Assembly: GCA_937911525.1 (NCBI GenBank) | Contig: CALDQK010000927.1 | Location: 1-48,112 of the forward strand | DNA length: 48,112 bases | Reading direction: 5' to 3' | Origin: an uncultured bacterium | GTDB taxonomy: Bacteria > Planctomycetota > J058 | In this document: positions 27,940-40,376 of the stretch, piece by piece | How positions within the stretch are numbered: the stretch's first letter is position 1 | How the letters are laid out: each line of letters opens with the position of its first letter | Notes under the pieces: generated by a model | Seen by the model: the letters and a program-made list of their open reading frames with translations, nothing else | What the model was told of the DNA's origin: nothing | Databases searched by the model: none | Program-made: the position numbers and the translations under genes

Positions 27940-28671
27940 ATGGCTGAGCGAGTGATCGAAGCACGCCCCGAGGGGGAGGAGCGCTGCACCGTCCTGCTGG
28001 TCGCCCTGCTGGGGCTGTTCCTCCTATGGCCGCTCTTGGGCTTGGGTCACGTAGGCTCCGCGCTGCTCGACCTGTTCGTGTCCGCGGCGCTGTTGCTGAC
28101 CGTCCGCGCCCTGCGAGGCCCAGGGCGCGCCGTGTTCCGCGCTGCCCTCGCGCTGTCCGTCCTGGCGATCGTCACGGCTGCAGGGAGCCACCTGCTCGGG
28201 GTGGCTTCGCTCCTGCCGCTGGGCCATGTGCTGGGGCTGCTGTTCTTCCTGCTCACGGGCGGCACCCTGCTCAAGCGCGTCCTGGAGCCGGGCCCCGTCA
28301 CGGCCAACCGCTTGGAGGCCGCGATCTGCGGCTACTTGCTCATCGGGTTGGGGTGGGCGCTCGTGTTCTCCCTCATGGAGCACTTCCAGCCCGGGGCCTT
28401 TCACGACCCAGCCGGAGGATCCCCGGAGAGCCACGCCGTGCTGGCGGGCTTCCCGCACTTGATCTACTACAGCTTCACGACCCTCACGACGCTGGGGTTC
28501 GGCGACGTGGTCCCGCGGAGCCCGTTCGCCAGGTCCCTCAGCACCCTGGAGGCGGTGGTGGGTCAGCTCTACCTCGCGCTGCTGGTCGCCAGGCTGGTGG
28601 GCTTGCACATCGCCCGGATCGCGGCCAGCGAGCAGACCGAGTGCCCGGCCCACCGCGAACCTGCTCAGTGA
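27940..28671 (+). CDS. K+-channel-like pore protein (Ion_trans_2 type)
   Basis: ATG at 27940 with GGAGG 5 nt upstream. Multiple TM helices are present, with a selectivity-filter-like TTLGFGD after a pore helix (IYYSFTTLTTLGFGDVVP). Confidence 0.75.
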   Translation: MAERVIEARPEGEERCTVLLVALLGLFLLWPLLGLGHVGSALLDLFVSAALLLTVRALRGPGRAVFRAALALSVLAIVTAAGSHLLGVASLLPLGHVLGLLFFLLTGGTLLKRVLEPGPVTANRLEAAICGYLLIGLGWALVFSLMEHFQPGAFHDPAGGSPESHAVLAGFPHLIYYSFTTLTTLGFGDVVPRSPFARSLSTLEAVVGQLYLALLVARLVGLHIARIAASEQTECPAHREPAQ

Positions 28672-29159
28672 CAGGGCTCGCCGCCGTCCGAGCTGCTGAG
28701 CGTGTCGACGAACTTGAGCCCCAGGCGCTCCAGCTCGGTCCGCGGGTCTTCTTGCTTGGCCTTGCCCCTGCCCGACCCGCTCGGGACGTCTCGCTCGGTC
28801 AGGGCCCGGAGCATGTCGAAGGAGCTCAGGATCCCGTGGACCTTCCCGTCCCGCACGATCACGAGGTGCCGGACGTGGTACTTGGCCATGAAGCGGGCCA
28901 CGAGCACCACGTCGACGGTCTCGGGCACGGTGTAGACCCGCCGCTGCATGACCTCCTTCACCGGGTGCCGGGCCTCGTCGCCCTGAATGTCCACGAAGTC
29001 CGCGCAGGTCACGATCCCGGCGAGGTAGTCCCAGTCGTCGACCACGGGGAGGGCGTGAAAGTCCTTGCCGCCCAGGATGCGGCGCACGCGCGCGATCGGA
29101 TCGGTCTCTTTGACTTTCACGACTTCGGTCGTCATGAGGTCACTGACTTTCATTGGCAT
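28665..29159 (-). CDS. CBS-domain pair protein
   Basis: Two CBS-type repeats are present (VSDLMTTEVVKV...ALPVVDD...GIVT; VKEVMQRRVYTV...HLVIVRDGKVHGILSSFDML). This is the last gene of the long minus-strand operon. Confidence 0.8.
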   Translation of the reverse strand: MPMKVSDLMTTEVVKVKETDPIARVRRILGGKDFHALPVVDDWDYLAGIVTCADFVDIQGDEARHPVKEVMQRRVYTVPETVDVVLVARFMAKYHVRHLVIVRDGKVHGILSSFDMLRALTERDVPSGSGRGKAKQEDPRTELERLGLKFVDTLSSSDGGEPCH

Positions 29160-30075
29160 TCCTCTCGGGGGCTCCGCCCTCCTCGGCCAGCACCTCGCTC
29201 ACCGCCGCGGCGAGCGCAGGCGCCAGCCCAATCTCATTGGTCGAATGCTCGATCGTGTCGCAAGTCACGATCTGCGCCGGGCCCGCGCCCTCCAGGGCCT
29301 GGAGGCCGTCGCTGGCGAAGACGGCGTGGATCCCCACGCACACCGTGGGCGGCATTCCGGCGCGGGCCAAGTGGCGCAGCGTTTCGACCATGGTCCGCGC
29401 GGTGGAGATGATGTCGTCGACCAGCACCGGGGTGTGGTCGCGGTAGCGGTCCACCTCAGGCACCGAGACCTCAACGTCCTTGTCCCCCCGCCGGACCTTC
29501 TCCAGCACGATGTGTGGGGCGCTGGCGAGCTCGGCGACCGACGAGACCCACTGCTCGCTCTCGCTGTCGGGGCCGACGAGCACGGGGCGCTCGACGTGCT
29601 CCCGGATCCAGTCGGCGACGGCCGGGGCTGCGTGGACGACGCGCGTCGGGATCGTGTAGCCGGACTCGGCGAGGGTCGCGTGGCGGTGCAGGTGGGGGTC
29701 GACCGTCACGAGCCAGTCGACCACCCGCGAGAGGAAGCGGCCGAAGTAGAGGCTCGTGATCCCTTCGCCGCTGTGGAAGCGCTTGTCCTGGCGCATGTAG
29801 GACAGGTAGGGCGCGACCAGGCCGACCCGGCGCGCCCCCAGGTCGCGCGCAGCCTCGGCCAGCATGACGAGGGGGACGACCTTCTCGTCGGGCTCATGCA
29901 GCGTGCACACCAACACGACCTCGCGGTCCCGGACGTCCGTTTCCAGGCGCACGTAGGTCTCGCCGTCCGGGAAGCGGCGCACCTCGGCGCTCCCCAACCC
30001 GCCCTCGAGCGCGGTCGCCAGGTCCGCCGCGAAGGCGTCGTTCCCGGGGAGGGCGAACACCAGCGGGAGGCTCAT
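29140..30075 (-). CDS. ribose-phosphate pyrophosphokinase (PRPP synthetase)-like protein
   Basis: Motifs present are RFPDGETYV, a VLVDDIISTARTM PRPP-binding loop and LVGPDSES. The start overlaps the upstream stop as ATGA and has a GGAGGAAGC RBS. Confidence 0.75.
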   Translation of the reverse strand: MSLPLVFALPGNDAFAADLATALEGGLGSAEVRRFPDGETYVRLETDVRDREVVLVCTLHEPDEKVVPLVMLAEAARDLGARRVGLVAPYLSYMRQDKRFHSGEGITSLYFGRFLSRVVDWLVTVDPHLHRHATLAESGYTIPTRVVHAAPAVADWIREHVERPVLVGPDSESEQWVSSVAELASAPHIVLEKVRRGDKDVEVSVPEVDRYRDHTPVLVDDIISTARTMVETLRHLARAGMPPTVCVGIHAVFASDGLQALEGAGPAQIVTCDTIEHSTNEIGLAPALAAAVSEVLAEEGGAPERNANESQ

Positions 30076-38438: not shown

Positions 38439-39832
38439 GCATGCGCCTCCTGGTACCTGCGCCGCAGCTCATCGAGCGTGCCGCCCATGTAAAGCGCCTG
38501 CTCGGGCAGGTCGTCGCAGTCTCCGCGCAGGATCGCCTCGCACCCGTCGAGGGTCTCCTCCAGCCGGACGAAGGCGCCGGGACGCCCGGTGAACGACTCG
38601 GTCACCGAGAAGGGCTGGGTGAGGAAGCGGCGCAGGCGGCGGGCGCGGAACACGGCCTGGCGGTCCTCGGGCGCCAGCTCGTCGGTGCCCATCAACGCGA
38701 TGATGTCCCGCAGCTCCTCGTACTTGGCGAGGACGCGACGCGCCTCGGCGGCGATCCGCGAGTGGCGAACGCCGACCACCTCGGGACGCAGCAGGGTCGA
38801 CGTGCTGCGGAGCGGATCGACCGCGGGGTAGAGCCCCTCGCTGGCGGCCTCGCGGGAGAGGACCAGGAACCCGTCGAGGTGGTTGAACACCTCGGCAACG
38901 GCCGGGTCGGTGATGTCGTCGGCGGGGACGTAGACCGCCTGGACGCTGGTGATCGCGCCGCGCTCGGTGCTGGCGATCCGCTCTTGAAGCCGGGCGATCT
39001 CGACGGCGAGCGTCGGCTGGTAGCCGACCCGCGAGGGGGGCCGGCCGAACATGCCGCTGACCTCGTTGCCCGCCTGCACGAAGCGGAACACGTTGTCGAT
39101 GAACAGCAAGACGTCCTGGCCGGCCTCGTCGCGGAACCACTCGGAGACCGTCAACGCGGCCAGGCCTGTGCGGTACCGGATCCCGGGCGTCTCGCCCATT
39201 TGCCCGTAGAGGAGCACCACGTTGGGGAGGACCCCCGAGCCCTCCATTTCGAGCCACAGCTCGCGGGCCTCGCGCGAGCGCTCACCGATCCCCGCGAACA
39301 CACTGACACCACGGTGGTAGTGCACCGTGTTCTGCATCAGCTCCATCATGAGGACGGTCTTCCCCACGCCGGCCCCGCCGAACAGGCCCGTGTTCCCGCC
39401 GCGCGGCAGAGGCGTGAGCAGGTCGATCACCTTGAGCCCCGTCTCGAACACGGCCCGCGCAGGGCGCCGAGCCGTGAGGTCGGGGGAGGGGCGGAGGATC
39501 GACCACCGATCGCCGCCGATCGCGTCGCCACCGTCCAGGGGCCGACCCAGGAGGTCGAAGACTCGCCCACGGACCTCCTGCCCGACCGGCACACGGAGCG
39601 GGCCGCCGGTCGGGGCGACGCGGTCTCCGACGGCGAAGCCGCGCGTGTCCCCGAAGGCCAGCGCGCGCACGTGGTCGGGCTCGTTGTGGAGCATGACCTC
39701 CAGCAGGAGCGGGCGGCGTCCGGGGCGGTTCAGCTCGAGGACGTGGCCAATGGTCGGCAGGTCCCCGGCCTGCTGGACCGGGAACTGCACCTCCACCACG
39801 GCTCCGTCGAGTGTCGTCACCCTTCCATCCAT
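38435..39832 (-). CDS. atpD: N-ATPase beta subunit
   Basis: The start was chosen at ATG 39832 ([17 protein letters not shown]), with GAGGAG 8 nt upstream, 20 nt after the upstream gene's stop. Walker A GGAGVGKT and the DELAPEDR (DELSEED-region) motif are present. Confidence 0.9.
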
Positions 39833-39851
39833 TGCGAACGACTCCTCAGGC

Positions 39852-40376
39852 TCAGTGCGAGTGCCCGGCGTGATTGCTGGCTGTTCGCTCTGCGTCATGC
39901 GAATGGGCGGGCGAGGCAGGCTGGGTGTTCCGGACACCGACGCCGTGGCCATAGACCAACAAGGCGCCGCGGTCCGCTCCGAGCACGGTCAGGAGGCAGC
40001 AGACGAGCAGCAACCCCACCGGAATCCACCGCCTGCCCCGACGTTCGGGCCGCCGGCACCACCAAGCGGCTCCACCCGCTCCCAGGGAGACCAGGAGCGC
40101 TGCCAGCATGAGGTTGCGATGGTCGTGAATGAGCTCGTGACCGGGGTGGTCGTGACCCATAGCGTCGGAAGCCAACCAACCGGTGAGGGCTGCAGCCAAG
40201 CCAGCGAGCACGCTGGCCCCGAGCAGCGCCGTCCCAAACTGGTAGGCCTTGTCGTCCTTCTTGAGGTAGGCGAAGGCCATGACCACCAAGGCCACGGGCC
40301 ATAGCGCCACCGGGAAGTGGACGAAGAGGGGGTGGATGTTCGGCGCGGCATCGAGCCCGGGGAGGACGGAGTCCAT
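39852..40376 (-). CDS. DUF2231-like 4-TM membrane protein with His-rich loop and tail
   Basis: The start was chosen at ATG 40376 (MDSVLPG...) with a GGAGGAAGC RBS. Motifs are [15 protein letters not shown], a [13 protein letters not shown] loop and a C-terminal [17 protein letters not shown]. It is the first gene of the operon. Confidence 0.65.

Follow-up and report, generated by a model that had tools for sequence, protein, structure and literature searches.

The stretch of DNA analysed here (48,112 nucleotides, contig CALDQK010000927.1 of an uncultured bacterium; hereafter the window) carries 15 consecutive minus-strand genes, running from 40376 to 28665, which most probably form a genuine operon co-transcribed from a sigma54 promoter. 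The string joins a DUF2231 membrane protein and a Na+-type rotary ATPase (N-ATPase) to a small Cys-rich protein, a metallo-beta-lactamase hydrolase with a beta-CASP domain (MBL), a long-form thymidine/AMP phosphorylase-like protein (TP), a Prs-like ribose-phosphate diphosphokinase (PRS) and a CBS protein. With a probability of roughly 0.6, we read it as a mosaic, sigma54-driven operon in a copper/silver-efflux island, combining a stress-linked pump with RNA and adenylate recycling. Comparison with other genomes showed that MBL-TP-PRS forms a mobile cassette of its own, widespread and also carried by plasmids, which resides mainly in copper/heavy-metal P-type ATPase and low-oxygen islands, and that a looser association of beta-CASP genes, N-ATPases, copper pumps and MBL-TP-PRS recurs across bacteria.

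Operon architecture and promoter

The 15 genes were delimited by third-position GC and open reading frame (ORF) analysis and identified with Pfam and NCBIfam. In the order of transcription, they are:

39852–40376, minus strand: membrane protein of the DUF2231 family, C-terminus rich in His; opens the operon (Pfam PF09990, E 3.5e-15)
38435–39832, minus strand: atpD (Pfam/NCBIfam)
38025–38438, minus strand: atpC (Pfam/NCBIfam)
37639–38028, minus strand: atpQ (Pfam/NCBIfam)
37352–37642, minus strand: atpR (position and a weak Pfam match)
36675–37355, minus strand: atpB (Pfam/NCBIfam)
36424–36678, minus strand: atpE (Pfam/NCBIfam)
35686–36414, minus strand: atpF (Pfam/NCBIfam)
34154–35689, minus strand: atpA (Pfam/NCBIfam)
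33315–34157, minus strand: atpG (Pfam/NCBIfam)
33014–33304, minus strand: small Cys-rich protein, 96 amino acids (translation)
31616–33004, minus strand: MBL/beta-CASP/RMMBL metallo-hydrolase (Pfam)
30072–31619, minus strand: long-form TP/AMP-phosphorylase-like protein, 515 amino acids (NCBIfam)
29140–30075, minus strand: Prs-like, archaeal-type (class III-like) ribose-phosphate diphosphokinase (NCBIfam)
28665–29159, minus strand: stand-alone CBS pair, last gene of the operon (Pfam CBS, two stretches)

Nine of the junctions are 4-nucleotide ATGA/GTGA overlaps, PRS and CBS share a longer overlap of 14–20 nucleotides, and at the other four the genes are separated by 19, 9, 10 and 9 nucleotides. 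A GGAGG-type ribosome-binding site precedes each of the 15 gene starts. The first-pass annotation, made from the letters of the window alone, had described this tight packing of 15 genes with ATGA/GTGA overlaps, and it had named the gene products; ORF and junction analysis confirmed the former, Pfam and NCBIfam the latter. Its "8-Cys lipoprotein" is indeed encoded by a Cys-rich gene, with nine cysteines (one in the near-lipobox and eight in four CxxC pairs) and not eight.

Upstream of the operon, pattern, repeat and Pfam searches located the following elements:

40402–40417, minus strand: sigma54-type -24/-12 element TGGCCTGAAATGTGCA, 26 nucleotides before the first ATG (pattern search)
40470–40527, strandless: two palindromic repeats GTTTCAG(G/A)TCTG(C/A)AA, 43 nucleotides apart, upstream of the sigma54 element (repeat search)
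40598 (ATG)–42137, plus strand: HAMP/HisKA/HATPase sensor kinase, divergent from the operon (Pfam)
42098–43483, plus strand: receiver/sigma54-AAA+/HTH_8 activator, divergent from the operon (Pfam)

The sigma54 pattern has four matches in the window, of which only TGGCCTGAAATGTGCA falls inside the 221-nucleotide intergenic region between regulator and operon. Together with the adjacent sigma54 activator, its position bears out the earlier suggestion of a sigma54-type promoter. A close relative (locus L085, see below) has TGGCCCAGGATGTGCA at the equivalent place and a similar palindrome, TTTCAAGTCTGAAA, upstream of its DUF2231 gene, and its kinase and regulator are syntenic with those of the window. 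The palindromic repeats are candidate binding sites for the sigma54 activator.

Consensus scans of 27500–41500, which have low power at the ~70% GC of the window, found no sigma70-like promoter and four terminator-like sites against 3.0 expected, none of them at an operon junction. Nor did they place a terminator or promoter between atpG and the Cys-rich and MBL genes, a break that the first-pass annotation had named as evidence against a single operon. The ATPase block does not stand out clearly as foreign by composition, GC being 0.70–0.74 throughout.

The N-ATPase block

According to Pfam/NCBIfam and junction analysis, the order atpD-C-Q-R-B-E-F-A-G is the published N-ATPase order. N-ATPases are defined by this order together with AtpQ, AtpR and a c subunit bearing a Glu pair and the motif ESTxxY (Dibrova et al. 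2010, PMC2881411), and the block has most of these features. The same work describes them as a second rotary ATPase beside a canonical F- or A-type ATP synthase of the genome. AtpQ is recognised by PF09527 (E 2e-9) and passes TIGR02230 (48.7 against a cut-off of 46.7). AtpR has been described as a hydrophobic protein with three transmembrane segments and a conserved Arg in two of them (Dibrova et al. 2010, PMC2881411). The slot for it holds a 96-amino-acid ORF with three hydrophobic stretches, the first and second of which contain Arg (..AAVHARLLL.. and ..GAPLRVAL..). It matches Pfam AtpR weakly (E 0.14; 13.1 bits, cut-off 26) and has no NCBIfam match; the equivalent ORF of a myxobacterial locus (L091) also matches AtpR weakly. 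The c subunit carries Glu in helix 1 (..ALGEGRG..) and the Na+ motif ESTxxY in helix 2 (..MVESTAIY..). AtpF is 242 amino acids long, and its residues 180–234 match the delta-subunit model NF009964 (E 6e-5), a delta-like C-terminus; there is no delta gene, and no atpH lies between atpF and atpA.

The alt_F1F0 models of NCBIfam were the best or near-best matches, all below their narrow "exception" cut-offs (score/cut-off: beta 583.7/752, alpha 506/750, c 117.5/130.85, a 226.9/302, b 82.8/224.7). The subunits are 70–90% identical to other myxobacterial N-ATPase subunits; homologues of the gamma subunit are few (n = 22), and the named ones belong to Nannocystaceae or Myxococcales. By this evidence, the window would derive from a Nannocystaceae-like, marine member of Myxococcota.

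Proteins encoded downstream of the ATPase

The 96-residue Cys-rich protein has a signal or near-lipobox sequence (LPGC), four CxxC pairs and nine cysteines in a double zinc-ribbon-like arrangement, with a weak Pfam DZR match. Homologues stand upstream of MBL or TP in four relatives (L082/L083, L174/L175).

The MBL protein combines Lactamase_B (E 1e-36), Beta-Casp (E 8e-17) and RMMBL (E 4e-16) domains in Pfam, and its HAHLDH sequence fits HxHxDH. The best PDB match was the Thermus RNase TTHA0252 (E 4e-79), followed by Cas14 and aCPSF; scores fell below the Cas14 and aCPSF1 equivalog cut-offs. It is thus predicted to be a TTHA0252-like beta-CASP RNase.

The TP-like protein passes NF003338 (676.8 against 434) and TIGR02645 (578.5 against 434.6). 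Its best PDB match is the AMP phosphorylase of Thermococcus kodakarensis (E 5e-102), classical TP/PyNP enzymes following at about 1e-38. Since the best solved relative is this archaeal AMP phosphorylase, conversion of AMP to ribose-1,5-bisphosphate is plausible chemistry for the protein. An N-terminal motif, M-x3-C-[HP]-V-C (DC[HP]VC, residues 36–48), is conserved in the bacterial family: among the window protein and 84 homologues (L001–L085), Cys40 is present in 72/85 and Cys43 in 82/85, and Cys251 and Cys416 are nearly invariant. A motif of the DC[HP]VC type is not known from the T. kodakarensis enzyme; the alignment to 4GA5 spans residues 72–509 and begins after the motif region. Given the copper-island context, the motif could serve as a switch that responds to metal or redox state.

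The Prs-like protein passes NF005537 (419.9 against 322), and its best PDB match is Methanocaldococcus jannaschii Prs (1U9Y, E 1e-44), with RFPDGE, RQDK and DDIISTxxT aligned, which points to a class III-like ribose-phosphate diphosphokinase. The CBS gene follows PRS only in close relatives (L082–L085, L176–L178).

Distribution of the MBL-TP-PRS cassette

Protein searches with the TP-like sequence gave at least 8000 matches, the top 120 of which were at least 59% identical to the query and came from several phyla; at least 599 loci were confirmed in species-representative genomes. The best 80 of these at least 599 loci were screened with all window proteins, and 44 had full 10-kb flanks. Among the 44, PRS lay next to TP in 36 and MBL in 31. 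Within 10 kb of TP, a P-type ATPase was present at 20 loci, an ICMT-like methyltransferase at 14, a phosphoketolase at 13 and any metal-island marker at 24. By a rough estimate from usual copy numbers, a random 21-kb stretch would contain a P-type ATPase in only a few per cent of cases. An N-ATPase was found within 10 kb at one of the 44 loci, likewise one of the 80 screened (gammaproteobacterial L040, on the opposite strand), and a V-ATPase at none of the 44.

MBL, TP and PRS are adjacent and co-directional across unrelated genomes. Members of the TP-like family were located on 126 plasmids, including 49 conjugative ones, in arrangements such as MBL-TP-PRS-CopA-...-TolC-RND (Legionella pH3-D-14) and HMA-DUF2933-ICMT-MBL-TP-PRS-...-P1B ATPase-CopC-CusRS (Ralstonia pB1901). 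In Bradyrhizobium diazoefficiens, bll3115-3117 (MBL, PRS, TP) are induced by microoxia at the transcript and protein level (PMC6515984).

Close relatives and operon assembly

Loci nearest to the window show four differing arrangements. In L085 (TP 83% identical), the regulators, DUF2231, TP-PRS-CBS and the Ser/Thr kinase align with the window; 8.2 kb containing the N-ATPase, the Cys-rich gene and MBL are absent, and DUF2231 directly precedes TP. L082/L083 (TP 79%) encode a V-type ATPase, a kinase, the Cys-rich protein, MBL, TP, PRS and CBS, then OEP-CusB-CusA, with all gaps of the string at most 75 nucleotides. L176 (85%) has kinase-MBL-TP-PRS-CBS, and in L174/L175 (77%) the Cys-rich gene is followed by TP-PRS-kinase. 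From these arrangements, TP-PRS emerges as the invariant core and the remainder as modular. The equivalent slot in this lineage has been taken by two non-homologous rotary ATPases, N-type and V-type.

The genes of the V/A-type ATPase in L082/L083 (1–6336) stand in an unusual order (B, D, I, K, two unassigned genes, A). In the K subunit, the sequence PSSQ...YQG...VEG forms an SQ...Q...E pattern resembling the Na+ site of Enterococcus hirae. In L176 (2–2222), the MBL gene was called as 270 amino acids with Beta-Casp and RMMBL domains only, and the sequence upstream aligns from window-MBL position 842; a frameshift, a pseudogene or an assembly error is possible.

The Ser/Thr kinase, with a multi-pass membrane N-terminal domain, is syntenic with TP-PRS in every close relative, on a side that varies (L082 6412–8316; L085 9514–10653; L174 5249–6796; L176 2–826), and may regulate the cassette.

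N-ATPase loci in other genomes

Six related myxobacterial N-ATPase loci (L086–L091) were read, and a metagenome scan with an N-type c-subunit profile yielded 80 further ones, of which about 18 extended at least 3 kb beyond atpG and were informative there, most contigs being short. Four of the myxobacterial loci (L086, L089, L090, L091) contain the N-ATPase without accessory genes. In L087, the N-ATPase is accompanied by a divergent beta-CASP gene together with genes for a universal stress protein and a LOG-family protein, and in L088 a beta-CASP gene overlaps atpD; at one of the 80 metagenomic loci (L107), a beta-CASP gene lies directly upstream of atpD. With 40–62% identity to the window protein, this beta-CASP family is found near N-ATPases in L087, L088, L107, L180, L182 and L183. 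A P-type ATPase lies within 10 kb at six of the 80 metagenomic loci (L101, L114, L127, L140, L163, L170), a hint at a general clustering of N-ATPases with P-type pumps; in L101 and L163, the P-type ATPase follows about 0.5 kb after the point where atpG should end.

A LOG-family (Lysine_decarbox) gene accompanies the beta-CASP gene close to the N-ATPase in L087 (289–3445, with the universal stress protein gene between the two) and on the Sulfitobacter plasmid (L182, 3959–6375), which suggests that LOG plus beta-CASP is a further recurring sub-module.

Six N-ATPase-bearing plasmids were also read:

Sphingobium fuliginis p1: CopAB, CopCD, a P1B ATPase, CueR and ack/pta upstream of the N-ATPase; full MBL-TP-PRS on the opposite strand, the nearest gene being PRS, about 3.6 kb after atpG
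Legionella pH3-D-14: N-ATPase, DUF2231 plus multicopper oxidase, and MBL-TP-PRS in one island of about 25–30 kb
Paraburkholderia pOLGA1: a divergent beta-CASP gene 53% identical to that of the window, universal stress proteins, a K+ channel and a CBS protein
Sulfitobacter SK012: LOG-MBL 14 kb upstream of the N-ATPase, ack/pta and a universal stress protein
Methylocystis pGW6_1: N-ATPase with a P1B ATPase, ICMT and CusCBA, and no MBL-TP-PRS
Azospirillum plasmid: N-ATPase without any of these neighbours

The N-ATPase, copper pumps and MBL-TP-PRS thus share one island on the Legionella and Sphingobium plasmids; in Legionella this island also includes the DUF2231 gene, which precedes the multicopper oxidase.

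A model for the operon and its alternatives

In the reading that we favour, the ancestral unit would have consisted of DUF2231-TP-PRS-CBS, controlled by the sensor kinase and sigma54 activator next to it, and the N-ATPase block, the Cys-rich gene and the beta-CASP gene would have come to sit between DUF2231 and TP in this lineage. Two conserved neighbourhoods would overlap here, MBL-TP-PRS of metal and low-oxygen islands with their P-type ATPases and N-ATPase plus beta-CASP of stress islands, with the beta-CASP gene as the probable hinge joining them. Metal or respiratory stress would act through the two-component system on the sigma54 promoter. The N-ATPase would then pump out Na+ (or H+) by hydrolysing ATP, 5'-nucleoside monophosphates (NMPs) would be freed from RNA by the beta-CASP RNase, and the AMP-phosphorylase-like enzyme would convert AMP or other NMPs to base and ribose-1,5-bisphosphate. 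We propose that, by removing AMP, phosphorolysis would protect the adenylate energy charge. Interconversion of ribose-5-phosphate and phosphoribosyl pyrophosphate (PRPP) by the Prs-type enzyme would recycle ribose phosphate, and the CBS protein would serve as adenylate sensor. Functional coupling of the cassette to ion pumps is plausible.

Several points weigh against this reading. The first-pass annotation had regarded the N-ATPase as hard-wired to the downstream genes. TP/PRS/CBS were found at none of the 80 metagenomic N-ATPase loci (about 18 of them informative downstream of atpG) and at none of the six related myxobacterial ones; an N-ATPase lies within 10 kb at one of 80 TP loci, on the opposite strand; and the nearest relatives of the cassette have no ATPase (L085) or a V-type one (L082/L083). 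Operon-level linkage is therefore not conserved across genomes, an outcome which that annotation had itself counted against its proposal, and the fusion of the N-ATPase to TP-PRS-CBS is a lineage-specific mosaic, essentially unique to this population. One further locus (L178) is 100% identical to the window over 8530 bases and for that reason tells nothing of conservation beyond this population. Internal promoters are possible, given the weakness of consensus scans at 70% GC. The TP-like protein scores below the cut-off of the AMP_phos equivalog TIGR03327 (474.7 against 535), and neither ribose-1,5-bisphosphate isomerase, RuBisCO nor ribose-1,5-bisphosphate kinase was seen among the annotated neighbours, for which no dedicated search was made, so that the fate of ribose-1,5-bisphosphate would be left unexplained. 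The biochemical scheme is entirely inferred, and the association with metal islands could reflect co-mobilisation and not shared function.

A rival account is accidental compaction, in which the N-ATPase block landed in an existing sigma54 operon of a rearrangement-prone metal island and is co-transcribed with it without functional coupling. Besides the missing conservation of the fusion (0/80 and 0/6), the single N-ATPase among 80 TP loci and the four arrangements of the close relatives, it is favoured by the occurrence of both the cassette and N-ATPases as accessory genes on plasmids. Yet a different rotary ATPase, of the V-type, occupies the equivalent slot of a close relative and is packed equally tightly, the component set shares islands in distant taxa (Legionella, Sphingobium, gammaproteobacterial L040), and the window junctions are translationally coupled, with ribosome-binding sites. 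We consider this account unlikely, although it survives best among the competitors of the mosaic stress operon.

A more far-reaching proposal, which we regard as slightly more doubtful still, is that MBL-TP-PRS constitutes an unrecognised bacterial NMP phosphorylase pathway, which would buffer energy charge and ribose phosphate specifically for cation pumps driven by ATP. If co-expression were selected for, this would account for the recruitment of both N- and V-type ATPases, each with Na+-site signatures, directly upstream of the cassette, and for its company with P-type ATPases on plasmids conferring copper resistance. Through its N-terminal Cys motif, the TP-like enzyme could make such a pathway respond to metal or redox state.

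Alternatively, TP-PRS might pair a PRPP-forming enzyme with a TrpD-like phosphoribosyltransferase acting on an unidentified base or metabolite, in place of AMP degradation; the product might perhaps be tied to metal stress or low oxygen, and the beta-CASP protein might act on a nucleotide-like substrate. Translation of TP and PRS is coupled and the two stand side by side in 36/44 full loci, PRS retains the ATP and ribose-5-phosphate motifs of Prs and passes NF005537, and the TP fold family includes the PRPP-using TrpD, with weak trpD matches for the TP-like protein. Such a reaction would also agree with the lack of a ribose-1,5-bisphosphate consumer among the annotated neighbours (no dedicated search was made) and with a DC[HP]VC motif that is conserved in the bacterial TP family and presumably foreign to the archaeal enzyme. 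On the other side, AMP phosphorylase is by far the closest solved relative (E 5e-102), and the AMP_phos model scores 474.7 bits against 45 for trpD. We judge this alternative improbable.

An anti-phage or toxin-like system, in which the downstream genes would deplete nucleotides and the beta-CASP protein would be Cas14-like, is highly improbable: in NCBIfam, MBL matches the type VII Cas14 model best (382.7 bits, cut-off 800) and a phage major head protein gene lies in the window (1480–2619), but the neighbourhoods are rich in metal pumps, phosphoketolase, universal stress proteins and fermentation genes and not in defence genes, the trio is microoxia-induced in Bradyrhizobium (PMC6515984), and PADLOC returned no match for the six accessory proteins (DUF2231, Cys-rich, MBL, TP, PRS, CBS), for which reason the defence-system reading was rejected.

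The N-ATPase and each of the enzyme families are already known, and the trio has been annotated and reported as microoxia-induced, uncharacterised. Our literature search found no description of an association of the trio with copper islands, N-ATPases or V-ATPases, in agreement with the first-pass annotation, which knew of no described rationale for linking an N-ATPase to nucleotide enzymes. The physiological role of N-ATPases is still unsettled, and the bacterial AMP-phosphorylase-like family is large and has no assigned function. The locus and its relatives connect an RNA/nucleotide cassette, N-, V- and P-type pumps and copper/low-oxygen islands on conjugative plasmids, including those of Legionella. 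If the coupling is true, it would add a new layer of energy management to metal and ion resistance; if not, the operon still illustrates cleanly how modules are combined through block insertion and non-orthologous replacement.

Genomic surroundings

The remaining genes around the operon were assigned with Pfam:

16926–25398, minus strand: OEP-CusB(HMBD)-CusA, downstream of the operon
25821–27677, minus strand: membrane Ser/Thr kinase
27883–28671, plus strand: K+-channel-family gene (Ion_trans_2), convergent on the operon
45852–48110, plus strand: P1B-type heavy-metal ATPase (YHS, two HMBD and E1-E2 ATPase), running off the window end

An ECF sigma factor gene lies beyond the divergent regulators. 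The metal island proposed in the first-pass annotation is substantiated by OEP-CusB-CusA on the downstream side and the P1B ATPase at 45852–48110, and its downstream part (16926–28671) is syntenic with L082/L083/L085. The CusB-like adaptor (21035–24064, minus strand) is unusually long (1009 amino acids), with three HMBD repeats and two DUF3347 stretches, an architecture also seen in L082/L083. The stop of the K+-channel gene overlaps that of CBS by 7 nucleotides, and only a remnant of the gene aligns in L085. On pOLGA1, a potassium-channel gene (L183 28581–29411) lies just downstream of the N-ATPase, with no detectable similarity to that of the window.

The left part of the window contains a phage major head protein gene (1480–2619, plus strand; Pfam Phage_cap_E, E 2e-22; PHROG 29, E 2e-30), the sole PHROGs match in this part. 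It belongs to a co-directional plus-strand block of ORFs (about 3–16245), including large ones of 853 and 1241 amino acids without family matches, which may be a prophage or a phage-like element beside the metal island. The 1241-amino-acid ORF (12520–16245, plus strand) overlaps one of 442 amino acids (14065–15423, minus strand) that also has high third-position GC; neither has a family match.

Comparison with known systems

In gene order, the ATPase block is identical to the N-ATPase operon as published (Dibrova et al. 2010, PMC2881411) and as found in Burkholderia pseudomallei with its c17 ring (Schulz et al. 2017, PMC5376962). The two also share AtpQ, the lack of a delta gene, a long b subunit with a delta-like end, and a c subunit with Glu in both helices and ESTxxY, and the window has a candidate AtpR-like three-helix protein with membrane Arg residues. 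The window differs in that the block is embedded in a longer sigma54 operon, with DUF2231 upstream and five non-ATPase genes downstream, the gaps at those junctions being at most 10 nucleotides; neither paper mentions DUF2231 or nucleotide-enzyme neighbours of the N-ATPase (PMC2881411, PMC5376962).

The TP-like protein and T. kodakarensis AMP phosphorylase (4GA4/4GA5/4GA6) are both long forms of about 500 amino acids with an extra N-terminal domain, and have the motifs PKTSSRAITS, SPADD and SKK in common. Their partners differ: a Prs-type enzyme and a beta-CASP RNase for the former, ribose-1,5-bisphosphate isomerase and RuBisCO for the archaeal enzyme.

The bll3115-bll3116-bll3117 cluster of Bradyrhizobium has the same three families side by side and provides the sole expression evidence that we found for the cassette (PMC6515984). 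Unlike the window, the reported cluster has no N-ATPase, CBS or DUF2231 gene, and it is listed as induced with no function assigned (PMC6515984).

Families of the low-oxygen-activated (lxa) locus of Burkholderia cenocepacia (PMC3721108) overlap those surrounding the N-ATPase on the Paraburkholderia, Sulfitobacter and Sphingobium plasmids: a metal-dependent RNase, a cation-transporting ATPase, universal stress proteins, acetate kinase/phosphotransacetylase, alcohol dehydrogenases and genes for the storage polymer polyhydroxyalkanoate (PHA). Islands of the lxa type are fermentative, whereas that of the window is of the copper/silver efflux type.

Closest to the window in content are the copper/heavy-metal plasmid islands of Legionella pH3-D-14, Ralstonia pB1901 and Sphingobium fuliginis p1, where MBL-TP-PRS stands beside P1B ATPases and RND/TolC efflux, along with ICMT/DUF2933 and CopC/CusRS. 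In these islands, each module is a transcription unit of its own, the strand varies and the distances are 4–30 kb, whereas in the window the modules form one co-directional, overlapping string.

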